Shown: positions 784 to 62,762 of the stretch, piece by piece
Layout of the letters: every line of letters starts with the position of its first letter
Position numbering within the stretch: the stretch's first letter is position 1
Translations under genes and position numbers: made by a program
The notes under the pieces: model-generated
Told to the model about the DNA's origin: nothing
Databases searched by the model: none
Seen by the model: only the letters and a program-made list of their open reading frames with translations
NCBI GenBank assembly: GCA_900547975.1
Contig: URIX01000003.1
Location: forward strand, 17,867-81,866
DNA: 64,000 bases
Direction of reading: 5' to 3'
Origin: an uncultured Eubacteriales bacterium
GTDB lineage: Bacteria > Bacillota > Clostridia > Christensenellales > CAG-917

Positions 784-785
784 AG

Positions 786-3399: not shown

Positions 3400-3413
3400 G
3401 CCCCCTATTTCGT

Positions 3414-3650: not shown

Positions 3651-3863
3651 ATGGCAAAACTTATAAAAACAAAATCCGGCAAAGAAATTGCATTGCTCAA
3701 TCCTTCTGAACGTGCAAAGAAGTATTCTCGTGAACTTAAACACGGCAAGAAAAGAAACGGACAACCGCTTACAGAAGCCGAAGCAGGTTTTCGTATGGGT
3801 GTTCTGAATGAACGCTCATTGCAAGCGAAGATTTACAATCGCAAGCACGGAATCAAAAAATAA
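3651..3863 (+). CDS. Small highly basic protein (70 aa)
   Basis: GAGGTG RBS. K/R-rich (MAKLIKTKSGKE...KHGKKRNGQ...NRKHGIKK) with no TM segment. Confidence 0.6.
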   Translation: MAKLIKTKSGKEIALLNPSERAKKYSRELKHGKKRNGQPLTEAEAGFRMGVLNERSLQAKIYNRKHGIKK

Positions 3864-3869
3864 TAATTT

Positions 3870-4214: not shown

Positions 4215-4371
4215 AAAAATCAGCCCGAGTGACCTCACGATCTGTTCCGAACACGGAATTCGGTGTGGCTGATTTCAATAGCATTATATGCAATCGTTTG
4301 ATAATTGTCAAGCGAAAATTCAAATCTGACACGGCAGAATCCGTGAATAATAAAAATGAGAGGTACATATT

Positions 4372-5232: not shown

Positions 5233-5296
5233 CACTTTCAAATGTCGGGGGTGATTTTTTCGCCCTCGACAAAACAATTTTCCAAAGGTGATAAAA

Positions 5297-6178: not shown

Positions 6179-6188
6179 GAGGTGAACC

Positions 6189-8989: not shown

Positions 8990-8994
8990 TTGCT

Positions 8995-9108
8995 ATGGAA
9001 CCTAAAATCGACAAAAAGAAAATCGGCATTAGTATTGCCAAAATCATAGGATTTTGTATCGGCGCATTTCTAATCGGATACATTGTCTATACATTTATCA
9101 ACGCATAA
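8995..9108 (+). CDS. 37-aa single-TM micro-protein (candidate coat or pVI-like virion/assembly protein); not in the ORF track
   Basis: My translation: MEPKIDKKKIGISIAKIIGFCIGAFLIGYIVYTFINA. It fills the 124-nt gap between the 730-aa gene and the ATPase gene almost exactly. Confidence 0.5.
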   Translation: MEPKIDKKKIGISIAKIIGFCIGAFLIGYIVYTFINA

Positions 9109-9113
9109 CGGAT

Positions 9114-11357
9114 ATGAAAAAAGAAAACGTTTTGAAAAACTTAATCTGCGCAGGAATCGCAATCGGGCTTATGTTGCTCGGTGTGTTCTGTTTTAGAGAA
9201 TCTTATTTGAGATTCTTTGAAGCGTGCAAGGATTTCGGTCTTGCTGTTGCAGGGTTGTTTTTGAAAGTGTTTTCTTTCTCGTCTGATTTCAATTCAAAGA
9301 GTGTGTTCGAGGTTTCGAGCATTCCGCTTGAAAGCATTATCCCGTTAGATTTTTCGGCGTTTGTATCGAAGGTGAAAAACTTTGGTTCAAAACTTATCGA
9401 CGTCGAAAACATCGTCGGATATTTCCACGTCATTTGGCTTGGAAGTTACATCTTTATATACTTGCTTTTGATTGGCGTGCCAGTACTTTTTATCGTGTTG
9501 GCTATTATAGACGCTAATCTAAAAGGCAAGAACAACAATCACGGCGCCGAATCGAAACCGCTTGTTTTATTTAAGCGTTTTGAACGCCGTATTTTAAGTC
9601 CGATTAATTTTGAAGTTAAGAGTTTCGTGACTTTTGTTCGTGAATCGAAACTTTGGAAAGTCATATGGACTGTAATTATAGTTTTCAATTTGAACGTCGC
9701 CACAGTCCTTATGGAACTTATGGCGTTGTATTTTGCACTTTTGGACGGTTTGAACGTATCGAACCTGTATATCCTTTTTTATAAACTATTTGCTGATTTA
9801 TCGATGTTGACCCGTGTTCCCGTTACGGTCTGGATAATCTTTGCGATTTTCTTTGTTTTAATTTGGCGCAGAAAGAAAGGGTATGAGCGTTTGAATCGTC
9901 GTGAGCAAAAGAACAGGGCGGTTATCGAGTTGCTTTGCACATTCGTTATTTTCTTTGCGACAATGGGCGCAGGCAAAACGCTAACTATGACAGACGTTAT
10001 TTTGACGAAGCAACAAGAACTTCGTGAATCGGCTTTGGACATAATGAAAGAAGTCGATTTGACTTTCCCCGATTTCAAGTGGGCTGTATTCGAGCAAGAT
10101 ATGAAGAAGATGATGAATTCATATCAACGCCCGAAACGTGATTTTTTCGGAAAAGTTGTTAGGGATGAGTACGGGAATATCGTTTTTGAAACGGCACGTC
10201 CGATTCTTTACAATCTTTCTCGTATCGACGATTATTTTCACAATTTGAAAATAACCGCAAAAAGATACTTCGACGAGGACAACTGCGAGTATCGAAAGTT
10301 TTACGATAAAGCCGTAGCACAGGGCAAATTGAAACCTATTATGTGGGGCTATGACGTTGAATATTACGGATTCTGGGCGGATAACGCCTTGAAGTACGAA
10401 TATATACTTGATGCTTTGCGTGATTATGCGCAGGCGTATTTTATCTATTCTTTGCCGACGAGCTTAATTTTCTCAAATTATGCCGTCGTGACGAAGGACG
10501 TTAAAAACGACACGGGCAATTTTCCTGCTTGGATGACGGACTTTTTTGAAGTGCCGACATTCGAGTCTGACGGTGAGTCTATGAACTCGCACATATTGGA
10601 CAACGATATGTTGCGACTCGGCAAGAAGTTTGACGAAAATAACAAATACAAAGATGTTTTTGAATTTGGCGTTCTTGCTTACACGGAAGGCGACAAAGAG
10701 CGTGGCAATATGCTCGATACAATGGAACTTAAAAAACTTGTCGAAGAAGTGAATCAGAAGAACGACAATTTCAATGGAACGTTCAAGATGTCGAGGCATC
10801 CTGCGACGATTCGCAATAGAAAGTTTTTCTTTGCGTATATGGATATGCAGAGAACGAGCAGTATAAACGCCGACTTGAAAGAAATTGGCGACAACGTAAA
10901 GATTGAATCTGCGACTTCAACCGAAATGTTGATGCCGTTTTTTGCCATAGATGAACTGGTGTTCAATCTCGTAATGCCATACTTTTATAATAAGTACTAC
11001 GAATTCCGCCACAATCGAGGCGATATGAATTTGACGATGTACTTGATGAAGAAGGTAGCCACGGCGATGAATAATCATTATGTCAGAGCATATAACACGT
11101 TCGGGTGTAAGACTGAAAAGTTGATTATCAATGAAGAAAAAGAGGCAAAGTACTACATTATGCCGAAGAAGATATTCAGCGGTGTTTTCTCGTCCGATGC
11201 GCTTGCAAGTTTCTTCCGGATGAAATCATCCAGAGCGATGCTCGGCGTGAATGATATACCGACGTATCAGAGCGACAAGGCGAGCATAAGCGAACTTGAA
11301 CAACTCAACAGTTACTTTGTGCGGGATTGGATGAAATATCTCGGTAAAGACGAATAA
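9114..11357 (+). CDS. Polytopic-membrane P-loop NTPase (candidate morphogenesis/extrusion ATPase, functional analogue of inovirus pI/Zot)
   Basis: ATG at 9114 (MKKENVLKNLICAGIAIGLMLLGVF...). About 6-7 hydrophobic helices in the first roughly 270 aa, then Walker A ATMGAGKT ([AG]x4GK[ST]), then a roughly 450-aa soluble region. The tracked start at 9054 overlaps the micro-ORF. Confidence 0.7.
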   Translation: MKKENVLKNLICAGIAIGLMLLGVFCFRESYLRFFEACKDFGLAVAGLFLKVFSFSSDFNSKSVFEVSSIPLESIIPLDFSAFVSKVKNFGSKLIDVENIVGYFHVIWLGSYIFIYLLLIGVPVLFIVLAIIDANLKGKNNNHGAESKPLVLFKRFERRILSPINFEVKSFVTFVRESKLWKVIWTVIIVFNLNVATVLMELMALYFALLDGLNVSNLYILFYKLFADLSMLTRVPVTVWIIFAIFFVLIWRRKKGYERLNRREQKNRAVIELLCTFVIFFATMGAGKTLTMTDVILTKQQELRESALDIMKEVDLTFPDFKWAVFEQDMKKMMNSYQRPKRDFFGKVVRDEYGNIVFETARPILYNLSRIDDYFHNLKITAKRYFDEDNCEYRKFYDKAVAQGKLKPIMWGYDVEYYGFWADNALKYEYILDALRDYAQAYFIYSLPTSLIFSNYAVVTKDVKNDTGNFPAWMTDFFEVPTFESDGESMNSHILDNDMLRLGKKFDENNKYKDVFEFGVLAYTEGDKERGNMLDTMELKKLVEEVNQKNDNFNGTFKMSRHPATIRNRKFFFAYMDMQRTSSINADLKEIGDNVKIESATSTEMLMPFFAIDELVFNLVMPYFYNKYYEFRHNRGDMNLTMYLMKKVATAMNNHYVRAYNTFGCKTEKLIINEEKEAKYYIMPKKIFSGVFSSDALASFFRMKSSRAMLGVNDIPTYQSDKASISELEQLNSYFVRDWMKYLGKDE

Positions 11358-11363
11358 TACGTT

Positions 11364-11640
11364 CTCGATGTCAAGGACAAGGCAAAAATAATTTTTGCTC
11401 GCAAAAATTATTTTCGGGACGGAATGCCCCTTGACATCGAGGGATAAAGATTACAATTTTACAAGTCCGTGCAACATATGTGTTGCACGGCTTGGTTGCA
11501 AAATAAGCTTGACGTTTGAGCGTAAGCGATACAACTCAAAATTTTGCCCTCGGAAGTCCGACGGCGCACAAGAGCAGGTTGCCGGTGCGCCGACGGAAGC
11601 CGAAGGCAAAAATGTTTGCGCACTTGATACTGCGCAAACA
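11364..11640. promoter_or_regulatory. Hairpin-dense intergenic region (candidate replication origin / packaging-signal region)
   Basis: 13-bp inverted repeat ctcgatgtcaagg (11364-11376) / ccttgacatcgag (11429-11441) encloses the palindrome caaaaataatttttg. Perfect 10-bp hairpin ccgtgcaaca-tatg-tgttgcacgg (11467-11490). Two more 8-bp stems: cggcgcac/gtgcgccg and gtttgcgc/gcgcaaac. Confidence 0.55.
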
Positions 11641-11660
11641 TAAAGGTCACGGAGGCTGAA

Positions 11661-12710
11661 ATGAACGCACTCTTGAATTCTCTATTACATAACTGCGTAA
11701 AGCGTGAAGAAATGACTCCGAGCTGGCTTCCTGATAAGGATGCCAACTATCACGATATAGCGATAGCAGAGAAGAAACTCGCAAGCAACGAGAATCGCAG
11801 ATACATATATCAAAATTATTGCGCAACTTGCACTTGCAGGACAAATTGCAAAATAATCGGATATAGGCATTGGAAGAAGATAAACACGATAATAAATAGA
11901 TTTCCGACTGGGGAAGTCGAGATAATTCGTTTTGACGAGCCGTTGAAGTGTATAGACGAGAACGTCAATCAAGAAAATGTCGGCGGAAGGAATTATATAG
12001 AGATAGACGGGATTTTGTTTCCGAAAGACGAAAACGCAAGCAATGCAAAGTTTTTGGAAAATATGTCAAACTCTGCGAGGCAGAGTGTAGACAAATATTG
12101 GGGCTTTGCAAAATCGAACGAATGGGATTATTTCATAACGTTGACTTGCGATCCGAAGAAGGTTGACAGATTCGATGACGACAAAGTAAAAGAACTTTGG
12201 ACGTATTGCAGGAAGAAGATTCAACGTTTCGATTGCAACGCAAAGATTTTGCTTGTGTGGGAACGTCATAAAAAAGAAAACGAATACGGACAGAAGGCAT
12301 TGCACGCTCACGGTTTCGTATCGATGCAACGGGCGTTTACGTGGCGACAAATGAAAGATAGGAACGGGAAGTGGATGTATTCGAATACGGGTGCAGCATT
12401 GTTTGAGTTTCCGTTCTGGGATTACGGACTTGCGACGTGCGCAATTATACCGAAGGGAAAAGACGAGAACGGGAACGATATAACGCAAGGTGCGGTTGTA
12501 AGTTATCTTTCAAAGTATATGAGCAAGAGTGAGATAAGTGAAGTCGGCTATGGAAAGAAACGTTTTCATCATACGACGAATCTTGCGTTCAAAGAAAAAG
12601 GAATGTATTGTATGGATTGCGACACGTTTGAAGAATCAATCGGGGATGACTTCGAGATATATAAGAAGGATGACAAGGGCAGAACGTATTATAGAAGCAA
12701 AAGGCACTGA
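11661..12710 (+). CDS. Rolling-circle replication initiator, HUH superfamily, two-tyrosine type
   Basis: GGAGG RBS. Motif I FITLT (WDYFITLTCD), motif II HUH (ALHAHGFV) and motif III YxxKYxxK (VVSYLSKYMSK) occur in canonical order. The last has the same form as the phiX174 gpA-type active site. Confidence 0.8.
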   Translation: MNALLNSLLHNCVKREEMTPSWLPDKDANYHDIAIAEKKLASNENRRYIYQNYCATCTCRTNCKIIGYRHWKKINTIINRFPTGEVEIIRFDEPLKCIDENVNQENVGGRNYIEIDGILFPKDENASNAKFLENMSNSARQSVDKYWGFAKSNEWDYFITLTCDPKKVDRFDDDKVKELWTYCRKKIQRFDCNAKILLVWERHKKENEYGQKALHAHGFVSMQRAFTWRQMKDRNGKWMYSNTGAALFEFPFWDYGLATCAIIPKGKDENGNDITQGAVVSYLSKYMSKSEISEVGYGKKRFHHTTNLAFKEKGMYCMDCDTFEESIGDDFEIYKKDDKGRTYYRSKRH

Positions 12711-12799
12711 AAATTAATGTTCAACCCGTGTATAAACTATTCGCAAAACACAACCTTTACGCAAAGAAAGTGATAAAATATGCTCTAAATAGAGGATTT

Positions 12800-12835
12800 T
12801 ACAAAATTAAGATTTGTTATGTAAAATATTTTACA
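12800..12835. other. dif-like / XerD-arm-like motif cluster at the right flank of the element (candidate att site)
   Basis: ttatgtaaaat (12817-12827) matches 10/11 of the XerD arms of E. coli dif (TTATGTTAAAT) and B. subtilis dif (TTATGTAAACT). It is part of a perfect 16-bp palindrome tgtaaaatattttaca (12820-12835). Two further ATTTTACAAA copies flank it. Confidence 0.3.
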
Positions 12836-13035
12836 AATTTCTCATATGTGTGTTTTTTCGAATTTCGGTTATTTGATATTCGGGACCGATTCTAATATCG
12901 ATTTCTATGTCGTTTTTTATATTATTATCTGTTCAAACCCGCCGTATTTTGTCGAAAACAAATCGATTCTCTATCCGTTTTACTCTGATTAAAACAGCGA
13001 TTTTTACGATTTTAAGTGGATTTATTGCGGGATTT

Positions 13036-34383: not shown

Positions 34384-34702
34384 GCGAGTTAGCCGAACGG
34401 TCGCGTGAAATATTGAGGAAAGTCCGAGCATCACAGGGCAAGGGTGCCGGGTAACTCCCGGTGAAGGCGACTTCAAGGACAGTGCAACAGAAAAAAACCG
34501 CCGCGTATGCGGTAAGGATGGAAAGGCGAGGTAAGAGCTCACCCGCAATTTGGCGACAATGCGCGATGTAAACCCCACTCGATGCAAGATCGGGAGTACG
34601 AAATGTGGCCCGCAAACTCCCCACATCGCTTGAAACGTGCAGAAATGTACGTTGTAGATAGATGACCGTTTAAGACAGAACTCGGCTTACAGACTATCTC
34701 GC
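34384..34702 (+). ncRNA. rnpB: RNase P RNA, bacterial type A
   Basis: GAGGAAAGTCCGAGC (34415-34429) and ACAGAACTCGGCTTA (34675-34689) are the two P4 strands. GGGTGCCGGGTAACTCCCGG and AGTGCAACAGAAA match type-A core elements. The ends gcgag/ctcgc pair as P1. Confidence 0.9.
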
Positions 34703-34710
34703 AAAATGAA

Positions 34711-34740
34711 AAAAGAAGGCGCAAGAGCCTTCTTTTTTCT
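34711..34740. terminator. Rho-independent terminator between convergent rnpB and recN
   Basis: aaaagaaggc-gcaaga-gccttctttt with A/T runs on both sides. Confidence 0.75.
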
Positions 34741-34886: not shown

Positions 34887-36578
34887 TTATTTCAAAGAAT
34901 CTTTGTATCTTTGCGCGTTTGCTTTCATCTCTTTTGCGTGCGGCACGGCGTATATAGAATAGTCGTTTCCGCCAATAAGTCTTGCCACCTCGTCCGTATC
35001 GTCTTTTAGCAAATCGACGTGAGTCAAAGTCTTGCCGTTTTCGGTGGACTTCGAGATGAGATAGTGATTGTCCGCCATAGAAGCGAGTGACGGCATATGC
35101 GTCACGGCAACGACCTGTCTTGCACGCGAGATATTACACATCTTTTCAGACACGACTTGAGAGATATTGCCCGAAATTCCGGTATCTATCTCGTCAAAAA
35201 CCATAGTGCCGATGTCGTCCACGCCTGCGAGAATGTTTTTGAACGCAAGCATAAATCTCGACATTTCACCGCCCGAAATTATCTTCGCAAGCGGCTTTAA
35301 CGGCTCTCCTACGTTTGGCGAAATCATAAACTCCACACTGTCCGCGCCGTTTGCGGATATTTGGTCAACGTCGTCGGTAGTTTCGATTTCGACTTTGAAC
35401 GTCGAACCGCCCATACCCAAATCGCAAAGTTCTTTCGTGATGTCTTTTTCAAACTTATCTGCGATTTTGCGTCTTTCCTGCGAGAGTTCCTTTGCGCTTG
35501 CAAACAACTTTTCGGCGGCAACTTTAATCTCTGTTTCGAGTCTCTCCACTCTTTCGGTTGCGTTCGATAGCGTTTGCGCTTCTTTCGTCGCTTCTTCGTA
35601 GAATTTTTGCAAGGATTCGTAACTTCCGCCGTATTTGCGCAAAATCGTGCGCACGACTTCGAGTCTTTCCTCTATCTGCTCTGCCGAGCGCGAATCGAAG
35701 TCGAGTTTTTGAAGCATATCCGAAAGAGTCTCGGATATATCCGTAATTTCAACCTTGCAAGAATCCAACCTATCCGCGATAGGCACGATGTTTTCGTCGT
35801 ATGAAGAAATGGTGTTCAAAAGCGAGTTTGCGTTCTTAATGGACGCGCTCACGCTTTGCGAATCGTATCCGTCCAAAAGGTTTTTCGCACCTTCGAGCGC
35901 GGATATGATTTTTTCCATATTGCGAATACGCTTGCGAGCGGAAAGAAGTTCGTCTTCTTCCCCGTCTTTTACGTCCGCTTTTTCGATTTCGTCAATCTGG
36001 AATGATAAAATATCGAGTTTTCTCTCTCTTTCGTCGGCGTTTCCGAATCTCAAAAACTCTTTTTTCAGCGACGTGTAATCGTCAAAATTCTTTTCGACTT
36101 CGCCCTTTACCGTCGCGATTTTCTTCTCGCCGAGTTTGTCGAGAAGTTTGATATGATTCGTGCTTTTAAGCAGCGATTGATGTTCGTGCTGACCGTGAAT
36201 ATCGACAAGAAGTTCCGTCAAACTTTTAAGTGCGGACAAAGTGGAAATTCTGCCGTTTATTCTACACTCGTTTTTGCCGTCCGCGCTCATTTTTCTGCGC
36301 AAAATAAGCACGTCTTCGGCTTCGATTCCCAAATCGTCGAGGCAATCCTTTATCGACGGCGTGAGATAATCCTCGAACACCGCCTCTACGCTTGCCTTGT
36401 CCGTACCGAAGCGAATGAGGGATTTGTCCGCGCGCTCGCCCAACACGAAATTGAGCGAGTCGATGATAATCGACTTACCTGCACCCGTTTCGCCGCTCAG
36501 AATATTCAAACCGTTTTTGAGTTCGAGTTCGAGTTTATCGATGAGCGCGATATTTTCGATTGAGAGTTGGCAAAGCAT
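34887..36578 (-). CDS. recN: DNA repair protein RecN
   Basis: LSGETGAGKSIIIDSL Walker A, SGGEMSRFMLAFK signature, long coiled-coil. Confidence 0.95.
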   Translation of the reverse strand: MLCQLSIENIALIDKLELELKNGLNILSGETGAGKSIIIDSLNFVLGERADKSLIRFGTDKASVEAVFEDYLTPSIKDCLDDLGIEAEDVLILRRKMSADGKNECRINGRISTLSALKSLTELLVDIHGQHEHQSLLKSTNHIKLLDKLGEKKIATVKGEVEKNFDDYTSLKKEFLRFGNADERERKLDILSFQIDEIEKADVKDGEEDELLSARKRIRNMEKIISALEGAKNLLDGYDSQSVSASIKNANSLLNTISSYDENIVPIADRLDSCKVEITDISETLSDMLQKLDFDSRSAEQIEERLEVVRTILRKYGGSYESLQKFYEEATKEAQTLSNATERVERLETEIKVAAEKLFASAKELSQERRKIADKFEKDITKELCDLGMGGSTFKVEIETTDDVDQISANGADSVEFMISPNVGEPLKPLAKIISGGEMSRFMLAFKNILAGVDDIGTMVFDEIDTGISGNISQVVSEKMCNISRARQVVAVTHMPSLASMADNHYLISKSTENGKTLTHVDLLKDDTDEVARLIGGNDYSIYAVPHAKEMKANAQRYKDSLK

Positions 36579-36622
36579 AATTCACCGCCTTCGAAAAATG
36601 TCAAAAAGCAATTCTTTCGCGA

Positions 36623-37093
36623 TTAATACAGTCTGTTCGCCTCGAGCAAATCTTCGAGACGTCTGCGTATCATATCGACGTGTTCGAGAGAATCCACCGC
36701 CACGAAAATCGTGTTGTCGCCCGCAATAACGCCGAGAACTTCGTCGTACGAAAGTTTGTCGATAAGTTCCGCGGCAGGGCCTGCGCTTCCCGTTTCGGTT
36801 TTGAGAACGATGAGATTGCCCGTACTCTTTATGGAAACGACCGTGTTTTTGAACATACTCAAAAATTTGTCTGCGGCACTTGCCTCTTTAGTTTGTTGCG
36901 CGGTGTATTTGTAATGCCTGCCGTCGCTCGAAAGAGTTTTGATAATGCCCATTTCCTTGATGTCGCGCGACACGGTGGCTTGGGTCACCGAAAAACCTTC
37001 GCTGCGAAGGTAATCCACAAGTTCTTCTTGCGTGTCGACGTCGTGTTTTGAAATGATGTCCAAAATTTTGAGTTGTCTGTTTGCTCTCGCCAT
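36623..37093 (-). CDS. argR: Arginine repressor
   Basis: RQLKILDIISKHDVDTQEELVDYLRSEGFSVTQATVSRDIKEMG winged-helix region; C-terminal GVIAGDNTIFV. Confidence 0.9.
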   Translation of the reverse strand: MARANRQLKILDIISKHDVDTQEELVDYLRSEGFSVTQATVSRDIKEMGIIKTLSSDGRHYKYTAQQTKEASAADKFLSMFKNTVVSIKSTGNLIVLKTETGSAGPAAELIDKLSYDEVLGVIAGDNTIFVAVDSLEHVDMIRRRLEDLLEANRLY

Positions 37094-37104
37094 AATATTT
37101 CACC

Positions 37105-37908
37105 TTATCCTCTGGGATCGACAAGACCCCATCTGTTCATTTTTTGAAGCAATTTCTTGAAGAAATTGTTATCTTTGGTTGCCAAAAACTTTACGTTTCG
37201 AGCAGATTTTTCAACGAAAACGCTCTTTTCGCCCTCGATATTCGCAACGTTCTCGCCGTCGGCGCATACGATTGCCTTTTCGTCTTTTGCAAGTCGCAGT
37301 TCGATTTTGGATTTCGCGTTCACGACGAGCGGACGGGAATGCAGCGAGTGCGCGCATATGGGGATAATCACAAGTGCGTCCACGTCGGGCGCAAGCACCG
37401 GACCGCCTGCCGAAAGCGAATACGCCGTAGAACCCGTCGGCGAAGATACGATTGCGCCGTCGCTGTGATATGAATCCACAAACTTTCCGTCAACGTAAAC
37501 GCCGATGTAAATCGGGCGCGAAGTCGCGCTTTTAAGCACGATTTCGTTTAACGCTTTGACGCAAAAATCATCGAATCGCACGTCGAGAATTGCTCTTTGT
37601 TCGATTTTGCCTTCGATGATTCCGTTTGCAATTTCGCTCGCCGAAGAATTTTTTTCAAACTGGGTCAAAAATCCGAGATTTCCGGTATTTACGCCGGTTA
37701 CGACGACATCTTCTCTGATGTTTTTCACCGCTTCGAGAACAGTGCCGTCCCCGCCGAAAACAATCAAATTTTTGCAATCGGACGGAATGTTTTTCCCGTC
37801 CTCAATCTCGAATACGTCAAATCTTTCGTCTGCTTTAAGAGAAGCGACGATGTCGTTCATTTCCTTGGAATATTCGGCTTTTGTGAAAATTGCGATTTTC
37901 GTTTTCAT
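37105..37908 (-). CDS. nadK: NAD kinase
   Basis: GGDGTVL and NTGNLGFL motifs. ATG at 37908 is preferred over the tracked TTG at 37914. Confidence 0.9.
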   Translation of the reverse strand: MKTKIAIFTKAEYSKEMNDIVASLKADERFDVFEIEDGKNIPSDCKNLIVFGGDGTVLEAVKNIREDVVVTGVNTGNLGFLTQFEKNSSASEIANGIIEGKIEQRAILDVRFDDFCVKALNEIVLKSATSRPIYIGVYVDGKFVDSYHSDGAIVSSPTGSTAYSLSAGGPVLAPDVDALVIIPICAHSLHSRPLVVNAKSKIELRLAKDEKAIVCADGENVANIEGEKSVFVEKSARNVKFLATKDNNFFKKLLQKMNRWGLVDPRG

Positions 37909-38075
37909 AATCAAGAGCCATTATACAACATCGAAAGTATTTATTCAAGTATAAAACAAAGTTTTATTGAATAATTGCATATTTTCGGCGAGTTTATGCA
38001 AAGCGGATTTTTGCGGCGATTTGCAACTTTGCCTCCATCGATTGACATATTTGCTCGCTTTTGTATAATTGAGGT

Positions 38076-38405
38076 ATGTTTAGTTTGGTTTTATCCATAT
38101 CCGAATTTGCAACAAAACTTGTTGCCGGACTGTCCGGCACTATTTTTGCGTTGCTGATTTTGGGACTCGTTATCGGCGCAAAAAAACGCGTTCCGAAGAA
38201 CATTAATCCCGACGAACTCAAACGCAAGGCAAAGGACGCGCCCGAAACCGAAAATACGGACAAGAAAGGCAAAAAATCCAAATCCGATAAATCGAAAATC
38301 AAAGCGGAATCAATCGAGAATAAACAAGATAAACCCGAAACGACAGCCGAAAACAAATCCGATAACGCCCAAAGCGAAAAGAAAGAAGCGGTCGACAAAA
38401 AATAA
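38076..38405 (+). CDS. Small membrane protein with a Lys/Glu-rich tail (109 aa); strand assignment tentative
   Basis: TM segment LSGTIFALLILGLVIGA, then KKRVPKNINPDELKRKAKDAPE...KKEAVDKK. The overlapping minus-strand ORF (37994-38467) is F/S/L-rich, as expected for the antisense of a Lys-rich gene. Confidence 0.4.
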   Translation: MFSLVLSISEFATKLVAGLSGTIFALLILGLVIGAKKRVPKNINPDELKRKAKDAPETENTDKKGKKSKSDKSKIKAESIENKQDKPETTAENKSDNAQSEKKEAVDKK

Positions 38406-38493
38406 AAGCAACCTATTATTATCGAAAACAGCAATAAAGCTAATAGCGGCAAATCGAAAAACGACATAAAAACGACGTCTCAAACCGACGTCG

Positions 38494-39204
38494 TTATTTT
38501 TTCATATAGAGCAAATATTCGATGTTTTTATTTTCGTAGCGTATGGGCGAAGTGGACAAATTCAGTATTTTGAAACCGACGTTTCGGGCGTATTCGGTGA
38601 CATTTTCCACTGCTTTTTTGCGCAATTTTTCGTCGGTTACGATACCGCTTTTATTGAGTGCGGATTTGTCGAGTTCAAATTGCGGTTTTATAAGCACGAC
38701 AGCCTCGCCGCCCGTTTTGAGCAAATCGAACATAGATTGCAAAACGTACGTCAAAGAAATAAAACTCACATCGCTGCAAAGAAAATCGACTTTTTCAAGG
38801 TTATGCGGCAATGCTCTTGCGTTCGCTTTCAAAAATTCGACCTTACCCGTTTCAAGAAGTTTTTTTTCGAGCGCACAGTCGGCGACGTCTACGGCAAGCA
38901 CGCGCTTTGCGCCGTGACGAAGCAGGCAATCGGTAAATCCGCCGTTCGAGCAACCTATATCCGCGCAGTATTTTCCCCCGACGTCAAGGTTGAAATCGCA
39001 AAACGCTTTTTCGAGTTTATACGCGCCTTGCGAAGCGTAATTCTCGTCGTTTACGATTTGCACGTCGTCGCTGTCCGACACGTCTGTCGAGGATTTTGAA
39101 ACAATTTTTCCGTTCAGAGTCACCCTGCCCGTTTTTATCATATTCTCGGCGTAAGTGCGCGATTTGAGATTGAATTTATCTTGAATGTACTTGTCGATTC
39201 TCAT
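38494..39204 (-). CDS. tlyA: TlyA-family rRNA 2'-O-methyltransferase (S4 + FtsJ domains)
   Basis: MRIDKYIQDKFNLKSRTYAENMIKTGRVTLNGK (S4 domain) and DIGCSNGGFTDCLL (SAM motif). ATG at 39204 is preferred over the tracked TTG at 39213. Confidence 0.88.
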   Translation of the reverse strand: MRIDKYIQDKFNLKSRTYAENMIKTGRVTLNGKIVSKSSTDVSDSDDVQIVNDENYASQGAYKLEKAFCDFNLDVGGKYCADIGCSNGGFTDCLLRHGAKRVLAVDVADCALEKKLLETGKVEFLKANARALPHNLEKVDFLCSDVSFISLTYVLQSMFDLLKTGGEAVVLIKPQFELDKSALNKSGIVTDEKLRKKAVENVTEYARNVGFKILNLSTSPIRYENKNIEYLLYMKK

Positions 39205-39209: not shown

Positions 39210-40103
39210 TCAATCCTTGTCCGATTTGTCAGATTGTTCGCTTGCGTGTTTTTTCTCTTGTTGTTTTGCGATTTTGGCTTTCTTTCTAATTTTTCTCTCG
39301 TCTTTATTGAAGACGGCGAGAACGCGCGCCACGAACATAACGAAATCGCGCGAATTGTCGATTGCTATTTTTTTCATAAACGCTTTGCCGCCGATTGTCA
39401 TTGCCGAAACTATTGCGGAAATGACGATAGAAAGCACGATTTGCCACGTTTCGTTCAGCGAAACGGTGATTTTGACAACCAAAGCCGCCGAGCAAGCACC
39501 TGAAATAATGCTGAATATATCACCCACTATATCGTTGCAAACGCTGGACACGGTGTCGCTGTTTTTGGTGAGCCAAAGTGCGGTTTTTGCGCCGTACACC
39601 TTTCTCGAAGCCATAGAGATTATAGGCGTCGTGTCGCAAGAGGTCACGGCAACGCCGATTGCGTCGAACAATATACCCGACAAAATGAGGAATGCAAGCA
39701 AAATTATGACGACTACGAGTTGTTCGGAGTTAGACACGATTTCGCTCAAATACGAGAAAAACGCGGACAAAACAAGGGAAATTATCGTTGCCTTTATCCA
39801 CCAAAGATTGTGTTTTTTCTTTGACGTTTTCTTCTTTTTGTCTTCCTTTGCCGCGTCCTTTTTGTCCGATTTGTCGCCGTGTTTATTACTTGTCAAGTCG
39901 TGTTTCTGACTTGTCGACGCACAAACGATTTTGTCGATGTTCTTGCTTAAATCGGAATCAAAAACTCCGCTGACATTGCCGTCAACGCTTTGATTTTGAG
40001 TATCTGACGCGGTATTTTGAATATTAGATAAATTGTCGGCGCCGTCGGAAACGTTGCCCGACGGTGCGTCGCTTTGAGATTTATTATCAGTATGAGTCTG
40101 CAT
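39210..40103 (-). CDS. oapA: Polytopic membrane protein immediately downstream of the large ncRNA (candidate OLE-associated protein OapA)
   Basis: About 100-aa S/D/N/K-rich N-terminal region, then about 4 hydrophobic helices (WWIKATIISLVLSAFF..., VVVIILLAFLILSGILFDAIGVAV, VGDIFSIISGACSAALVV, IVLSIVISAIVSAMTIGG) and a basic tail. ATG at 40103 has GAGG 5 nt upstream. The assignment rests on position, not on a motif I can verify. Confidence 0.5.
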   Translation of the reverse strand: MQTHTDNKSQSDAPSGNVSDGADNLSNIQNTASDTQNQSVDGNVSGVFDSDLSKNIDKIVCASTSQKHDLTSNKHGDKSDKKDAAKEDKKKKTSKKKHNLWWIKATIISLVLSAFFSYLSEIVSNSEQLVVVIILLAFLILSGILFDAIGVAVTSCDTTPIISMASRKVYGAKTALWLTKNSDTVSSVCNDIVGDIFSIISGACSAALVVKITVSLNETWQIVLSIVISAIVSAMTIGGKAFMKKIAIDNSRDFVMFVARVLAVFNKDERKIRKKAKIAKQQEKKHASEQSDKSDKD

Positions 40104-40113
40104 ATGCACCTCA

Positions 40114-40703
40114 AAAAAATTCTATGTAATGGTGGCAACGCCTCGGGTAAACCTTGCGCCATAGGTTCGGTAGGTTTTCCCTGACTCAAAACTCGTCGTC
40201 GCCGTCCGAGAAGTTTCCTATCATATGAGTCATCTCAACGAGAAACCGAATCGCCACTTAGAGCACACTATAATCCCCGAGTCGCCTCGCAAGAACAGTC
40301 TAGAAGATTTCCTTGACAGATTCCGCCCGCCCTTATCTTTTTTTGCAAAGAGGATTTCACAAGGCGATCGCCCGTCGTTGTTGCGCAACGCCGACGAGCG
40401 TGGTTCCTTAATCCCTCCAAATCACTCAAAGCAGGCTACACTGTACACAGCGCAGTTGCACCGCATATCAGGTTTAACCCCGGTCAGTAGACGATTTTGC
40501 GCGACTACCGAGTCGGGTCTCCACGGAAATTGGGTCGGGTTTCGTATGCCGTTACAAGCCGCCCAAAGTCCTTAACTCCCAGCAACAGCCCCGATTTGGG
40601 CAAAAGAAGCCATCACCAGAAACTTCATCGATATGCCCTTCGGCGATATTTTACCCCCGCCTCCGAGTCGGTGGAATCTGACTAGAATACTGCACCACCA
40701 TTT
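40114..40703 (-). ncRNA. ole: Large structured non-coding RNA, about 590 nt, interpreted as OLE (ornate, large, extremophilic) RNA
   Basis: No credible ORF on either strand and GC-richer than its flanks. Many short complementary segments; CGACUCGG occurs three times. Own promoter directly upstream. Sits upstream of a membrane-protein gene followed by tlyA-nadK-argR-recN, the neighbourhood known for ole-oapA in Firmicutes. Ends are approximate. Confidence 0.55.
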
Positions 40704-40709
40704 GATTAT

Positions 40710-40737
40710 ATTATACCGAAAATATGAAATATGTCAA
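40710..40737 (-). promoter_or_regulatory. Near-consensus sigma-A promoter for the large ncRNA
   Basis: Minus strand: TTGACA (40737-40732), 16-nt spacer, TATAAT (40715-40710). It starts 1 nt after the recG stop codon. Predicted start is near 40703. Confidence 0.6.
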
Positions 40738-40738
40738 C

Positions 40739-42766
40739 TCAACTGTTGAGCGTGACCGAATTTATTGCGTCCAAAAACGCGTTGATTCTGGATTTCGACG
40801 TCCTTGTGAGAGCCAAAAGTTCGTTTAAGGAAAGATTTGAAAGGTATTTATCGGCGTATTCCTTTGCGTTCGACAAAATTTGCGCGTTGACTTCGAGCGA
40901 AAACATAGGCGTTAATGAGCGACCGCTCTGTTTTACGCCCAAAAAGTCGCCTGCGCCGCGCATTTCGAAGTCCACTTCGGCAAGATATTGACCGTCGTTT
41001 GACTTTTCAAGCGTTTGAAGCCTCTCGATTGCCTTTTCGCCTTTGTTTGAGGAATGTAATATGCAATGCGCTTCGCTTCCGTCTCTGCCCACTCTGCCTC
41101 GAAGTTGGTGCAACGACGAAAGTCCGAATCTGTCCGCATTCAAAATGAGAATTTCCGTTGCCTTGGTGTCAATGCCTACCTCTATCACGCTCGTTGCTAC
41201 CAAAAGCCTCGTATTGCCTTGCGAAAACTCGAACATAGCGCGTTCTTTTTCCTCGTTTTTGAGTTTTCCGTGAATGACGGAAACGGCAAAATCATTGAAT
41301 AGATTGCCGAAATCGCGCATAAAACTCTCAATCGACATAAGGTTGTTGCCCTCTGCGTCGAATATGGACGGACAGACGATAAACGCTTGTTTGCCCTCTT
41401 TGAGTTTGCGCACGATAAACTCTACGGACGATTGCAAATCTTCGTATACCGTCGTTTCGACGTTCGTCTGCGCTTCCGCTCGCTTTTCTATGCGTGAAAT
41501 GGCAATATCCTCGTAAAAAGTTAGTGCCATCGAGCGCGGAATAGGCGTTGCGGTGAGGCTCAACACGTCGCACGCACCCTTTCTTTCCAACTTTGCCCTG
41601 TCGTTTACGCCGAATCTGTGTTGCTCGTCTATAACCGCCAAAGCGAGATTTTTGTATTCAACGTCGTCGGACACAAGCGAATTTGTGCCGATAACGCATT
41701 GATAATATCCGTTTTTAAGTCCTGCAAGCACGTTCTTTCTCTCGCTTTGCGTGCAAGAACTCGTAAGCAATGCAAATCTTATACCCATTGCCCTTGCCAC
41801 ATTCGCAAACTTTTTTGCGTGTTGAGTTGCAAGTATTTCGGTGGGTGCCATAAGCGCGGCTTGTTTTCCGCCTTTTGCCGCCGCACACATCGCAAAAAAT
41901 GCAACGGCGGTTTTTCCGCTTCCCACGTCGCCGCTTATTATCCTCGACATATATTCGTTTGAGCGCATATCCGACATAATATCTTCAAACGCTTGCGCTT
42001 GCGAGTCTGTCGGGGCGAATGAAAGCGTATTTACATAGTCAACTATTCTAAAATTGTCGAAATTATAAAATACTTTTCTCGATTTTTGAGCGTTATTGCG
42101 CAATTTTCGGTATATTGAAAGCACGATTGCAAGGTCGAGCGAAGCAAGAGAATCTATCGCCCTTTCGGCAAGATTTATGCTTGCAGGTCTGTGCGCCGCC
42201 TCGAAACACAATGCAAAATCCTTGTTGATTTTGGCAAGACTACCCTCGTACGTTGCGCCTTTCACGCTGTCGAGCGCAGAGTAAACGATATTCTTAAAAG
42301 CATTCTGCCCAATCGTCGAGCCGAGCGGATAAAGCGTGTATATGCCGTCGAGTTTTGAAATCTTTTCGATTTTTTCAAGCGAAGGATTTACGACGGTGAG
42401 CGAGCCTTGATCGTTTGAAAGCCTCGTGAGCATTCTGTACGACTGCCCGACTGAAAATCCGTCGTGTAAGAACGGCATATTGTAAAACATCGCCTTGAAA
42501 TATATTCTGTTGTTTGCAAGATTGTCGCTGAATATGACGAAAAAGGACTTCGTTTTCGAGCGAGTCACGCTCGATACGCTCTCCACTCTGCCTTCGAGCA
42601 ACACGAGTTGCCCCGCCTGCGCGTCGACAACTTTGATAGGACTTTTTAGGTCTATGTACTTGCGAGGCAAAAAAGAAAAGACCTCGAATACGGAATGTAT
42701 GTCAAGGTCGTTAAGTTTTTTTATCGTTGCGTCACCGACGCCTTTTACATCGCGCAACGAAAGCAT
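40739..42766 (-). CDS. recG: ATP-dependent DNA helicase RecG
   Basis: GDVGSGKTAVA, DEQHRFG, LHQLRGRVGR. Confidence 0.95.
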   Translation of the reverse strand: MLSLRDVKGVGDATIKKLNDLDIHSVFEVFSFLPRKYIDLKSPIKVVDAQAGQLVLLEGRVESVSSVTRSKTKSFFVIFSDNLANNRIYFKAMFYNMPFLHDGFSVGQSYRMLTRLSNDQGSLTVVNPSLEKIEKISKLDGIYTLYPLGSTIGQNAFKNIVYSALDSVKGATYEGSLAKINKDFALCFEAAHRPASINLAERAIDSLASLDLAIVLSIYRKLRNNAQKSRKVFYNFDNFRIVDYVNTLSFAPTDSQAQAFEDIMSDMRSNEYMSRIISGDVGSGKTAVAFFAMCAAAKGGKQAALMAPTEILATQHAKKFANVARAMGIRFALLTSSCTQSERKNVLAGLKNGYYQCVIGTNSLVSDDVEYKNLALAVIDEQHRFGVNDRAKLERKGACDVLSLTATPIPRSMALTFYEDIAISRIEKRAEAQTNVETTVYEDLQSSVEFIVRKLKEGKQAFIVCPSIFDAEGNNLMSIESFMRDFGNLFNDFAVSVIHGKLKNEEKERAMFEFSQGNTRLLVATSVIEVGIDTKATEILILNADRFGLSSLHQLRGRVGRDGSEAHCILHSSNKGEKAIERLQTLEKSNDGQYLAEVDFEMRGAGDFLGVKQSGRSLTPMFSLEVNAQILSNAKEYADKYLSNLSLNELLALTRTSKSRINAFLDAINSVTLNS

Positions 42767-42767
42767 T

Positions 42768-44441
42768 TTATTCTGCGGAAATTATGTAGAAATAATGCGG
42801 TTGTCCGCCCGCATAGCAAGCGGTTTCGAGCCAGTCGAATTCTTCCGAAACCTTTTGGACGAGCGCGTTTGCCTCGTCTTCCGATACGTCTTTGCCGTAA
42901 TAAAGCGTGAGCATATCCTTGTCTTTTGCGATTTTTCTTATCGTATCGAGAGTGGTTTCTTCTATGCTTTGACTCTTTGCGACGATTTTCTTTTCGCAAA
43001 TGCCGATTATATCGCCTTCTTTAACGGAAAATCTGTTCATACGAGTGGAACGAACGGCGTGCGTAATTTCGGCACAAGTCACGTTTTGCATAGCAACGCA
43101 CATATTTTCGTAATTATCCTCGGGCGTGGAATCGGAATCGAACGCAAGCGAAGCGGAAATACCTTCGGGCATATTCGTCGTCGGAATGACGTACACTTCG
43201 GCTTTTGCGAGTTCTTTTGCCTGATTTGCGGCAAGAATGATGTTAGAATTGTTTGGCAGAACGAAAACGTTTTTCGCTTTTGCGTCATTGATCGCTTTGA
43301 GAATGTCGTCGACGCTCGGATTCATAGTCTGACCGCCCTCGACCACGGTATCCACCATCAAATCTTTGAATATGTTTGCCATACCTTCACCCGAGCAAAT
43401 AGAAATCATAGCGTATTCTTTGAGTTCTTCTTCCTTGTCGGGCTTGTCGTTTGCATGGATTTTGCGGTTTTGTTCGAGCATATTCTCGATTTTCACGCCG
43501 TCGAGTTCGCCGAGTCCCAAAGCCGCTTTCAACGCTCTGTCGGGATGATTGGTATGAACGTGAGTCTTCACAAGGTCGGTATCGCCGATGACGAGCACGC
43601 AATCGCCGATTGTCATAAGATAATCTCTGTATTTGTTGATTGCTGCCGTCGTAACTTCGTTTTTGAGGTGCGTAATAAAATACTCCGTACAATACTGGAA
43701 CGTAATATGTTCGTAGTCGTTTTCGAGCGGGTCGAATTCCTCGCTCGGCGCGGCGAGCGGCGCGCTTTCTTCGGTTGCGACTTTACCGCCGCTGATAAGC
43801 ACGAGTTCCTCGCCGATAAGCGTGCGATACATACCGTCGAACACCGTAACGAGGCCTCTGCCGCCTGCGTCCACGACGCCCGCTTTTTTGAGCACGGGAA
43901 GCATATCGGGGGTTCTTTGCAGAATTTCCTCACCCGCGTCTATAACACGTTTAAGGAAGGATTCGAAATCGATTTTTTTGCCTTTAGACGCGATTTGCGC
44001 TTCTTCGGCCATTGCTCTGACAACGGTCAGAATCGTGCCTTCTTTGGGCTTCGTAACCGCGCTGTACGCAATTTCCGTACCTTTTTTCAAACACTCTGCG
44101 AACGTTTTGGGCGAGAGGTCGGCTTTGCCTTCGAGAGCAACGGCAAACCCTCTGAAAATTTGGGATGAGATAACTCCCGAATTGCCTCTTGCGCCTTTGA
44201 GCGCGCCTTTGGAGAATGCGAGCGCGATTTCGTCTATGAGCAAAGAACCGCAAGCGTTTGCTTCTCTCACTGCCGACGCGAGCGTGAGCGACATATTCGT
44301 ACCGGTATCGCCGTCGGGAACGGGGAATACGTTGAGTTCGTCAACGATTGCTCTGTTCATTTCGAGAGCCTTTGCGCCGCCTTGCAGCATTTCTTTGAAT
44401 TTTAATCCGTCAATTCTTATCATTTCGTATATACCTATCAC
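42768..44441 (-). CDS. yloV: DAK2-domain protein YloV
   Basis: VFPVPDGDTGTNM DAK2 motif. 557 aa. Syntenic with yloU-rpmB. Start is GTG 44441 (overlapping the yloU stop) or ATG 44423. Confidence 0.88.
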   Translation of the reverse strand: MIGIYEMIRIDGLKFKEMLQGGAKALEMNRAIVDELNVFPVPDGDTGTNMSLTLASAVREANACGSLLIDEIALAFSKGALKGARGNSGVISSQIFRGFAVALEGKADLSPKTFAECLKKGTEIAYSAVTKPKEGTILTVVRAMAEEAQIASKGKKIDFESFLKRVIDAGEEILQRTPDMLPVLKKAGVVDAGGRGLVTVFDGMYRTLIGEELVLISGGKVATEESAPLAAPSEEFDPLENDYEHITFQYCTEYFITHLKNEVTTAAINKYRDYLMTIGDCVLVIGDTDLVKTHVHTNHPDRALKAALGLGELDGVKIENMLEQNRKIHANDKPDKEEELKEYAMISICSGEGMANIFKDLMVDTVVEGGQTMNPSVDDILKAINDAKAKNVFVLPNNSNIILAANQAKELAKAEVYVIPTTNMPEGISASLAFDSDSTPEDNYENMCVAMQNVTCAEITHAVRSTRMNRFSVKEGDIIGICEKKIVAKSQSIEETTLDTIRKIAKDKDMLTLYYGKDVSEDEANALVQKVSEEFDWLETACYAGGQPHYFYIISAE

Positions 44442-60875: not shown

Positions 60876-61106
60876 AACGAGCGCCTTTTTGCGACTTTTT
60901 TTGCCGCATTTTAACTACAAACACTATACCACATATTGTGGCGTTTATCAATTTTTTCAAGAAAATAGCACAAAAATCCACGAAAAAAATTGTCCGTTTA
61001 TATTGATTTACTAAATCAAATATGATATTCTATTCATAACTTGGATTATAGAGGGATTTTTTTATACGAAAATTCTTCTGTTTTCCGCGCGGAGGAATTT
61101 ATTTTT

Positions 61107-62762
61107 ATGGTAAATTTTGATGAAATCGAGTTTCTTGAAAGCGAAATAGTTGACGACGACCCCACCGCCCCCGTCGGTACTTTGGTGCATATAACCGAAG
61201 ACGACAAAGTCGAACCCGTCGAGCAAAAACAAGCCGTTCAAGTCGTCGAATCCGACGTTCGGAACGAAACTCGCCAAGGCGAAGCAAAAGAAGTCGTCGA
61301 AGTCGGCAATTCAGATAACGAACAAAAGGAACTAGCGCAAACCGTAACGACGGACGTTCAAGACGAACCGCAAGCCGAACAAACCGCTCAGTCCGAAGAA
61401 ACGGTCACCGAAACTTATCAACCCGAAGCGGTCGAGCAAGCGGAAGAAGTAGAAGATACAACCGATGTTTCAACCGAGGAAACCTTGCAAGTCGCAGACG
61501 AATCGACAGAAACCGTCGAAACGGAATCCGTAAACGAAGTCGCAGACGAAACGGCGGTAGAAACGACCGAAGAACCGCAAGAAGTCACGCCGCAAGCCGA
61601 AATTACAGAAGAGGCGCAAAACATCGAAGATTCTTCCGAAGAAACCGCACCCGTTGAAGATAAGACTGCGGTAGAGAACGCAGTCGTAGAAGAATCCGCG
61701 CAAGAAAGCCAAAACGTCGAAGCGGCGCAAGACGAACAACCCGAAGAACAAAAAACCGTTCAAAAGGCAAAAAAACCGAGAAAACCCGCGCAAAAGAAAG
61801 AAGCCGCTCCCGTCGTCGTCAACGACGAGGAACACAAGACTTCCCTCAACCTCAAAAACGGCAAGTCCGTAAACGACGAATTGTTCGGAACGAGTTTCGA
61901 GATGGAACAACCCGCAAAGGCAAAAATCGTATCCACCAAGAAGAAACAAGAAAAGGCGGAAGATTTGTGGGCGGTTGCAGCCGTTGCAAACCCCAAGAAG
62001 GAAACCGCACCCGTAAAGGAAGAAGCGAAAGTCGAAGCGAAACCTGTCAAAACGGCTGCAAAGAAAGCGACGACAAAGACCGCAGAATCCGCGCCAAAAG
62101 CAGAAAACGAGGACGTCAAACCCGCGCCCAAGAAAACCGCTTCCAAAAAGTCAACAAAAGTTGAGAATATAAACACGTCTACGGAGGAAAAGAAAGTGGC
62201 AAAGACTACGAAAGAAGTCGCAACGGAAGAAAAACCCGTGAAAGCGAGCAAGGCAACAAAAGAAGTACCCGTAAAGGAAGCACCGGTAAAAGAAGAAGAA
62301 AAGGCTCACAAAGCGGAAACCAAAACCGTAAAAGACGATGAAACCGTCATCGTCGAAGGCGAAGGCAAAACTCACGGCAAGTACGTCATCAAAAAGACGG
62401 ACAAAGGCAACTTCGTTTTCAAACTCTATTCCTCGAATTACAGAGTCGTGGCAATCGGCGCACAAGCCTACACCACTCTCGGTGCGGCAAAAATCGGTAT
62501 TCAAAGCATAATCAACAACGCAGAGAAAGCACCGGTCGAAAATCAAACCTTGAAGAACTACGAAGTGGAAAAATTCCCCAAATGGGAAATTTATCAAGAT
62601 AAGAAAGGCGAATATCGTCTTCGCTTGTTTGCAACCAACGGCAACCTTATCGCCACCACCAACGACGGTTACGCCGACATCACGGGCGCAAAGAACGGAA
62701 TTGCGGCAGTTGCAAGAGCAAACAAAGGCTGCGCAATCGTAAGAAACGACAACCTCTGGTAA
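61107..62762 (+). CDS. Long disordered acidic/Lys-rich protein ending in a tandem YegP (DUF1508) domain
   Basis: GGAGGA RBS before ATG 61107. About 430 aa of E/Q/T/V- then K/A/E/P-rich low complexity. It ends with two YegP-like units: GKYVIKKTDKGNFVFKLYSSNYRVVAIGAQAYTTLGAAKIGIQSI and WEIYQDKKGEYRLRLFATNGNLIATTNDGYADITGAKNGIAAV. Confidence 0.75.
   Translation: MVNFDEIEFLESEIVDDDPTAPVGTLVHITEDDKVEPVEQKQAVQVVESDVRNETRQGEAKEVVEVGNSDNEQKELAQTVTTDVQDEPQAEQTAQSEETVTETYQPEAVEQAEEVEDTTDVSTEETLQVADESTETVETESVNEVADETAVETTEEPQEVTPQAEITEEAQNIEDSSEETAPVEDKTAVENAVVEESAQESQNVEAAQDEQPEEQKTVQKAKKPRKPAQKKEAAPVVVNDEEHKTSLNLKNGKSVNDELFGTSFEMEQPAKAKIVSTKKKQEKAEDLWAVAAVANPKKETAPVKEEAKVEAKPVKTAAKKATTKTAESAPKAENEDVKPAPKKTASKKSTKVENINTSTEEKKVAKTTKEVATEEKPVKASKATKEVPVKEAPVKEEEKAHKAETKTVKDDETVIVEGEGKTHGKYVIKKTDKGNFVFKLYSSNYRVVAIGAQAYTTLGAAKIGIQSIINNAEKAPVENQTLKNYEVEKFPKWEIYQDKKGEYRLRLFATNGNLIATTNDGYADITGAKNGIAAVARANKGCAIVRNDNLW

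Follow-up and report, generated by a model that had tools for sequence, protein, structure and literature searches.

What occupies the 635 nucleotides (nt) that separate the stop codon of recG (40741-40739) from the start codon of the next gene (ATG at 40103), and is the membrane protein encoded by that gene its partner? The question concerns a stretch of 64,000 nt, hereafter the window, from contig URIX01000003.1 of an uncultured gut bacterium of the Christensenellales, with positions numbered from its first letter. An earlier note on this DNA had described the gap as free of genes, richer in G and C (GC) than its flanks and headed by its own promoter, and had proposed that it encodes an OLE RNA followed by oapA, the gene of the membrane protein OapA, with an unclassified large non-coding RNA as the fallback reading. 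We conclude with high confidence that the minus-strand segment 40714-40116 is the ole gene of this bacterium, that it encodes a full-length-type OLE RNA and that the next gene is oapA, which encodes the four-helix membrane partner of the RNA.

Identity and fold of the RNA

The whole window was scanned against all 4227 Rfam families. The OLE model (RF01071, gathering threshold 50 bits) matched 40714-40116 on the minus strand over model positions 1-616, with 408.7 bits and E = 1.3e-116, the match being 599 nt long. Only one other family, RNase P RNA (34385-34705), reached its gathering threshold in the window. A permissive scan of 39900-40900 returned no family besides OLE at E ≤ 1, and the control models that the earlier note had suggested alongside OLE (ROOL, GOLLD, HEARO, raiA, tmRNA and introns) were among those without a match at this level. 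The covariance search thus came out in favour of OLE and excludes the fallback reading; nothing in the analysis contradicts the identification. The features of the RNA are as follows.

40116..40714, minus strand: ole gene, full-length-type OLE RNA, from the RF01071 match and RNAalifold covariation
40702-40695 to 40135-40128, minus strand: structured core of ole, bounded by the two strands of P1, AAUGGUGG (5', 40702-40695) and CCACCAUU (3', 40135-40128), which form a duplex of about 11 base pairs (bp)
40317..40680, minus strand: long-range helix P3/P3.1, its 5' strand beginning with CAGAUUCC (from 40680-40673) and its 3' strand ending with GGAAUCUG (to 40324-40317)
40570..40632, minus strand: P5/P5.1 arm, with J4a/5 AUCGAUGAAG at 40632-40623 and J5/6 GUUAAGG at 40576-40570
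40597..40601, minus strand: P5.1 loop GCCCA, invariant in 66/66 full-length relatives
40546..40550, minus strand: P6.1 loop GGCAU, kissing partner of P5.1 (role from PMC12265935), invariant in 66/66 relatives and the window
40383..40386, minus strand: P9 apical loop GCGC, self-complementary, from the folded P9 arm; putative homodimer kissing loop
40233..40243, minus strand: P13 stub UCUC-GUU-GAGA, with a 10-nt deletion relative to the model; GNRA tetraloop and bulge gone
40190..40213, minus strand: P14.1 hairpin with GCGA tetraloop at 40202-40199, from the Rfam alignment; GGCGAC conserved

The fold was also derived independently of the Rfam model, from a MAFFT alignment of 21 diverse representatives. 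The RNAalifold consensus contained 138 pairs, 86 of them with compensatory changes. Among the helices so supported were two long-range ones that involve the 5' end, namely P1, formed with the 3' end, and P2, formed with the CUAG region. The P3/P3.1 duplex of the window RNA comprises 8+3+3 bp (-21.5 kcal/mol in RNAduplex) and encloses domain 1 (P4-P9). P3 has been proposed as the membrane-spanning stem of OLE RNA (PMC12265935), and by the description given there the helix at 40317..40680 appears to be P3; the P numbering of the window RNA is our own assignment from the text of the papers. The GC enrichment of the region described in the earlier note is real and modest, the OLE match having 50.3% GC and the core 51.7% against 44.8% for the window, and 6.6% of 600-nt segments are as GC-rich.

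The statement that the gap holds no credible open reading frame (ORF) stands with one correction, as mechanical ORFs do exist there (116 amino acids (aa) on the plus strand, and others of 52, 53 and 62 aa). One could argue from the longest of these, 40225-40575 (+), that the conservation is due to a protein gene on the opposite strand, and a frame of 116-152 aa is indeed open in several close relatives. In the related loci designated L015-L018 and L020, however, it shrinks to 51-58 aa, and in many other OLE-bearing loci to 29-54 aa; the substitutions track base-pair covariation, and few stop codons are expected in a GC-rich structured RNA. The ORF, unmaintained in relatives that keep OLE, was rejected as a gene, and we assign this explanation virtually no probability.

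The link between the RNA and oapA extends well beyond the window. A single-sequence nhmmer search with the window RNA covered 80 related OapA loci and in 70 of them found OLE immediately before oapA, and Rfam added short-form OLE RNAs in L075, L076 and L080, so that OLE was present in 73/80. In 72 of the 73 it directly precedes oapA, L075 being the exception. Five of the seven OLE-less loci are contigs cut at oapA, and the other two are L050 and L054.

Those two loci carry a divergent OapA-like gene (8001-8660 in L050, 8001-8618 in L054; CADVIGD, altered loop between the second and third transmembrane (TM) helices), followed by nadK-argR-recN. Neither nhmmer nor Rfam detected OLE within 8 kb upstream of it, and the RNA may have been lost there while the protein was retained.

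The short forms (3948-4429 in L075, 3588-4072 in L076 and 7446-7936 in L080) span 482-491 nt and score 204-238 bits. The OapA proteins that go with them are short as well (172-173 aa in L075 and L080, an estimated 169 aa in L076) and have no N-terminal extension.

Dimerisation loops, protein-binding sites and subtype

Four dimerisation centres have been described in OLE RNA, namely the A-rich P4 loops, two P5.1-P6.1 kissing loops and the kissing of the symmetrical P9 loops (PMC12265935). All of the corresponding loops are recognisable in the window RNA, in which the P4 loop reads UAAAAUA, and dimerisation is predicted on this basis. The accounts of the Clostridium acetobutylicum and Clostridium botulinum homodimers solved by cryo-electron microscopy (cryo-EM; Kretsch et al. 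2025, PMC12286853; Wang et al. 2025, via PMC12265935) describe the same four elements and a P3/P3.1 helix of about 14 bp, as in the window. The window RNA differs in its P9 loop, which reads GCGC where the consensus has GGCC.

The P9 loops were read from folds of the anchored P9 arm; in some distant loci the anchors failed. The loop is GCGC in the window and nine close relatives, GGCC in the sister clades and the consensus, GAUC in L047 and a UAGCUA-containing loop in another group. A loop that varies and yet stays palindromic fits the requirement of a homodimeric contact, and the changes from GGCC to GCGC, GAUC or AGCU, always palindromic, are comparative evidence, obtained independently, for the kissing contact that cryo-EM revealed.

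Published OLE RNAs fall into a full-length form, variant 1 (shorter P7-P9, often without the OapB site, TANB77) and variant 2 (without P7 and P8, RF39) (PMC11332333). In the alignment to the Rfam model, P7 of the window RNA loses only 5 loop nt, and P8 and P9 are full length. The shortened P7, P8 and P9 of variant 1 are therefore not seen here, and the P7 and P8 hairpins, absent from the RNAs of about 480-490 nt that make up variant 2, are both present. With P7, P8 and P9 essentially complete, the window RNA belongs to neither variant. It also differs from them in size and score, with 599 nt and 408.7 bits against about 485 nt and 204-238 bits in L075, L076 and L080, and in its host lineage, Christensenellales as opposed to TANB77 (variant 1) and RF39 (variant 2). 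It resembles them in its host, which is uncultured, lives in the gut and has relatives with small genomes, and resembles many variant 1 RNAs in having no OapB-binding nucleotides at the end of P13 (PMC11332333).

In Halalkalibacterium (Bacillus) halodurans, OapB binds OLE RNA with high affinity at the GNRA tetraloop and single-nucleotide bulge of P13, its primary site, and has a weak secondary site in the GCGA loop of P14.1 (PMC7936274). The primary site, a feature of full-length OLE that published variants can lack, is missing from the window RNA. The distance from AGUGG to GGAAAC around P13 is 33-39 nt, with the stub UCUC-NUU-GAGA, in the window and in the 19 loci that could be measured among the 22 from L001 to L022, with L005, L010 and L015 giving no usable value. 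The same distance is 45-46 nt, with GUAA, GCAA, GUGA or GCGA loops, in L023-L029, L033, L038, L040, L047, L051-L053 and L068. The deletion, which is clade-wide, is visible in alignment columns ~625-638.

The nucleotides of J4a/5 and J5/6, together with the left shoulder of P6, form the kink-turn bound by OapC in H. halodurans (PMC9723947, PMC12265935). In the window RNA both AUCGAUGAAG and GUUAAGG agree exactly with the Rfam consensus; the kink-turn nucleotides are retained, and OapC binding is putative. Judged by its sequence, the window RNA is a full-length-type OLE minus the primary OapB dock only, and the particle probably works here without high-affinity OapB binding. As the published survey already notes losses of the OapB site "in many clades" (PMC11332333), the present case is a refinement and not a new class.

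The missing P13 tip also raises the reading that the region is a decaying, non-functional ole remnant in a reduced genome, which could further point to the disappearance of ispA and dxs from the locus and to the small genomes of relatives (e.g. CP091723.1, 1.65 Mb). We find this hardly credible: the RNA is full length apart from that tip, and the deletion is a shared, stable trait of the window and 19 of 22 related loci, with a stub that still pairs and covaries. Besides, the ole promoter is perfectly conserved, the dimerisation loops are intact, the one that changed having stayed palindromic, and the core of OapA is nearly invariant within the clade.

Promoter, transcription unit and OapA

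The elements that join the RNA to the membrane-protein gene are the following.

40710..40737, minus strand: sigma-70-type ole promoter, -35 TTGACA (40737-40732), 16-nt spacer, -10 TATAAT (40715-40710), 12/12 match to the consensus
40107..40112, minus strand: ribosome-binding site (RBS) of oapA, GAGGTG, conserved as TTGAGGTG and then ATG or GTG in L001-L020
39210..40103, minus strand: oapA, 297 aa, from the Pfam CNNM match, hydropathy, DxxxD and homologue alignments
38494..39204, minus strand: tlyA, rRNA 2'-O-methyltransferase (NCBIfam TlyA 184.5 bits; Pfam FtsJ and S4)
38471..38495, both strands: bidirectional hairpin terminator of tlyA and a small convergent gene, 9-bp stem on both strands, better T-run on the plus strand

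The promoter begins one base after the recG stop codon, as the earlier note had seen. Its hexamers and their distance to the conserved GGUGGUGCAGUAUUC of the OLE core are kept in L002-L021, and it is kept also where unrelated intergenic DNA, and not the end of recG, precedes it. Conservation in spite of unrelated upstream sequence argues for selection on a dedicated promoter. Transcription of ole would start near 40703.

In a sister group (L023-L025), a promoter-like TTGCA-N17-TATAAT lies farther upstream, ~30-60 nt before OLE, and a conserved small hairpin (GAGC-loop-GCTC) stands between the promoter and the OLE core; in the window clade the promoter directly meets the core.

At the other end, the closing helix ends at 40128, just before the RBS (40112-40107), much as the earlier note had described. 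A variable 10-20 nt separates P1 from the conserved TTGAGGTG RBS and its ATG or GTG, and the oapA ATG lies 25 nt past the end of P1. No terminator-like site was found between P1 and oapA, so that ole would be co-transcribed with oapA. The tlyA ATG (39204) lies 5 nt past the oapA stop codon, and ole, oapA and tlyA are predicted to form one transcription unit with tlyA as its last gene.

Such an arrangement, between a promoter and oapA without a terminator, is also what one would expect if the RNA served only to control oapA-tlyA in cis, in the manner of a long 5' leader or a riboswitch, and were no stable part of a trans-acting ribonucleoprotein (RNP). We regard this as very improbable. The RNA belongs fully to a family whose H. 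halodurans representative was shown to be stable, abundant, bound by protein and located at the membrane, and its 3' end carries no expression platform, neither a terminator nor an RBS-sequestering helix. Furthermore, the ole gene of L075 lies 3.5 kb from oapA (8001-8522), which does not fit the role of a leader.

The identification of the downstream protein as OapA, the second half of the proposed OLE/OapA pair, draws on several features. Hydropathy places four TM helices at residues 105-123, 128-146, 192-210 and 221-239, and the DxxxD motif (DIVGD, residues 191-195) lies at the start of the third. D[IV][IV]GD occurs in 73/73 complete OapA homologues, and every invariant position of a diverse OapA alignment is present in the window protein, which aligns with the OapA proteins found beside OLE in canonical ispA-OLE-oapA-dxs clusters. 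OapA has been described as a four-helix CNNM-like protein, told from MpfA by DxxxD, with CorB (7M1U) as its closest structure (Fernando & Breaker, PMC11332333). In line with this, the window protein matches Pfam CNNM (PF01595) over residues 135-266 with 29.0 bits (cut-off 28.4), a database search returned 916 OapA homologues, with PF01595 in all 120 listed, and CorB (7M1T/7M1U; E = 0.22, a weak match) was the sole PDB sequence match. The OapA family profile found no match in the PDB at E ≤ 1; among NCBIfam models no OapA model matched the window protein, only PknB, spuriously, with 18.9 bits. Unlike MpfA, CorB and CNNM, the window protein has four TM helices (CorB has three), the DxxxD motif and an RNA partner, and no other Pfam domain, CBS and CorC included, was found in it. 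By analogy it is a putative divalent-cation transporter, CNNM-like and without the CBS and CorC domains of MpfA, and this likeness to CNNM/MpfA Mg2+ transporters suggests a link to divalent-cation handling.

Positive charges are concentrated around the TM core. Invariant lysines (K78-K97) precede the first helix, a juxtamembrane block that is a general feature of OapA, and the loop between the second and third helices contains SRK..GAK; by the positive-inside rule this cluster would face the cytoplasm. The protein also has a variable polar and acidic N-terminus (residues ~1-77) and a basic C-terminal tail (267-297). The polar N-terminus of ~75 aa and the basic tail of ~30 aa occur only in the window clade, and with 297 aa and a first TM helix near residue 105 the protein is larger than the rest of the family (median 229 aa, first helix near residue 42).

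Apparent OapA-Dxs fusions of 800-850 aa in L031, L036, L058 and L071 were discarded as ORF-extension artefacts, oapA (190 aa) and dxs (622 aa) being separate ORFs in L031.

The clade, its neighbourhood and the OLE particle

Around the ole-oapA-tlyA unit, three further features are relevant.

40739..44441, minus strand: yloV (fakA-like) and recG, upstream neighbours in place of the canonical xseB-ispA
38042..38405, plus strand: small gene with a 109-aa product, promoter TTGACA-16-TATAAT at 38042-38069, ATG at 38076
34887..37914, minus strand: nadK-argR-recN, the usual downstream members of ole clusters

The downstream order given in the earlier note (membrane protein with four TM helices, tlyA, nadK, argR, recN) is correct, with the addition of the small opposite-strand gene between tlyA and nadK, and so is its remark that recG upstream and the lack of dxs make the context non-canonical. 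The order yloV-recG-OLE-oapA-tlyA-(small gene)-nadK-argR-recN is common to the window and 19 relatives (L002-L004, L006-L020 and L046), and a distant relative, L031, has the canonical xseB-ispA-OLE-oapA-dxs-tlyA-nadK-argR-recN cluster. Compared with the latter, the window context is a derived state of its clade. Farther upstream lies the priA-to-recG block of Bacillota (pcrA, ligA, yicC, gmk, rpoZ, coaBC, priA, def, fmt and rsmB, together with a radical-SAM enzyme, rsgA, rpe, rpmB and asp23), so that two conserved gene clusters abut at the ole locus. None of ispA, dxs, oapB (KOW-type), oapC (L7Ae-type) and rpsU (bS21) was found within the 64-kb window.

The nearest OapA genes (85-92% identity) come from metagenome-assembled genomes (MAGs) of gut Clostridia (UMGS1331, CAG:238, CAG:475 and 'Christensenella sp.' UBA bins), and CAG-475 has been placed in the Christensenellales by GTDB-based work (PMC12969317). 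Judged from these relatives, the host is CAG-475-like and would be one of the anaerobic or extremophilic Bacillota in which OLE is found.

nadK, argR and recN probably form a separate transcription unit, with a promoter TTGAAT-17-TATAAT at 37948-37920. The promoter-like site before nadK (37906-37948, minus strand) is only 11 nt from the likely ATG (37908), with no Shine-Dalgarno sequence. The ATG of the small gene lies 6 nt past its -10 box, and its mRNA is therefore probably leaderless; together the two cases suggest that this organism commonly uses mRNAs with a very short leader or none.

In the 109-aa product of the small gene, the motif ISEFATKLVAGLSG is accompanied by one TM helix and a tail rich in lysine, and no Pfam family matches it. 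Most of the loci L001-L021 have kept the promoter of the gene, the distance from -10 box to ATG and the N-terminal motif. None of its 48 homologues is named, and all those that could be placed belong to the window clade. A 157-aa minus-strand ORF at 37994-38467, rich in F, S and L and without a family match, was set aside as the antisense shadow of this gene. It is conceivable, though very unlikely, that the OLE particle was remodelled in this clade by loss of the P13 OapB dock, gain of the OapA tails and insertion of the small gene, the small protein or the OapA tails serving as a lineage-specific OLE partner in place of OapB. All three are confined to one clade, and their co-occurrence may reflect plain shared ancestry.

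A few observations concern other parts of the window. The RNase P RNA (bacterial class A, 245.9 bits, 34385-34705, plus strand) lies just downstream of recN on the opposite strand and is followed by a strong terminator hairpin (34708-34739). The ORFs from ~500 to 12900, mostly on the plus strand, scarcely match any family; two of them encode proteins of 730 and 767 aa. The block lies between a gene for a Cro/CI-type helix-turn-helix protein (526-783, minus strand) and one for a rolling-circle replication initiator at 11661-12710 (Pfam REP_ORF2-G2P, phrog_3419). The only PHROGs matches on 900-12,700 were this initiator and one family annotated without a function; the block may be an integrated small phage-like or rolling-circle element. 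At 61041-62762 (plus strand) lies a gene for a 573-aa protein whose sole match is two C-terminal DUF1508 repeats (residues ~520-559).

Among the closest known systems is the OLE RNP of H. halodurans (OLE RNA with OapA, OapB, OapC and bS21), with which the window locus shares the RNA family and the overall architecture. In both, oapA lies immediately downstream of the RNA and tlyA, nadK, argR and recN belong to the cluster; each OapA combines four TM helices with DxxxD and a basic patch on its cytoplasmic side; and the RNA has the J4a/5 and J5/6 kink-turn nucleotides and the P14.1 GCGA loop. Unlike the H. halodurans RNA, the window RNA is without the P13 GNRA loop and bulge and has its own consensus promoter right after recG, whereas ole there lies within a long operon led by ispA. 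The window also differs in having no ispA or dxs at the locus and no oapB, oapC or rpsU within its 64 kb, in the ~75 additional N-terminal residues and ~30-aa basic C-terminal tail of OapA, and in the extra small membrane-protein gene of the cluster.

What the particle may do is drawn from studies of OLE in H. halodurans, C. acetobutylicum and C. botulinum (PMC12265935, PMC7936274, PMC9723947, PMC11332333). By analogy, the promoter would drive an ole-oapA-tlyA transcript from which a stable RNA of ~575 nt accumulates, and two OLE RNAs would dimerise as in the two clostridia. With the basic surface that they expose to the cytoplasm, OapA dimers would bind OLE and anchor it at or across the membrane, the P3 stems crossing the bilayer in current models. 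Such a particle may help the cell to cope with excess Mg2+, cold, short-chain alcohols and poor carbon sources.

Several points weigh against carrying this picture over in full. The missing P13 tip shows that the RNP cannot assemble exactly as in H. halodurans. The CNNM kinship of the window OapA is weak, both in the margin by which it passes the Pfam cut-off (29.0 against 28.4 bits) and in the PDB comparisons, where CorB gave E = 0.22 and the profile no match. An AlphaFold2 model of OapA from a 16-sequence alignment reached a mean predicted local distance difference test (pLDDT) score of only 39.6 and a predicted template modelling (pTM) score of 0.20. What is said here on the ends and processing of the transcript, on dimerisation, on membrane association and on the physiological role is carried over from other species.

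The locus is an annotation within a known class and no discovery, as the OLE family is well described, is caught by a routine Rfam scan and the lineage is present in public MAGs. The annotation fills an apparent gap of 635 nt and gives a name to the adjoining membrane protein, in a host lineage that is prevalent in the human and animal gut. What interest remains lies in the palindromic covariation of P9, in the unexplained small membrane protein of the cluster and in the loss of the OapB dock from an otherwise complete RNA. The last of these represents a natural variant, a full-length OLE with all its dimerisation contacts and the OapC site and without the primary OapB dock, and could help to show which of the protein contacts of OLE RNA are dispensable.

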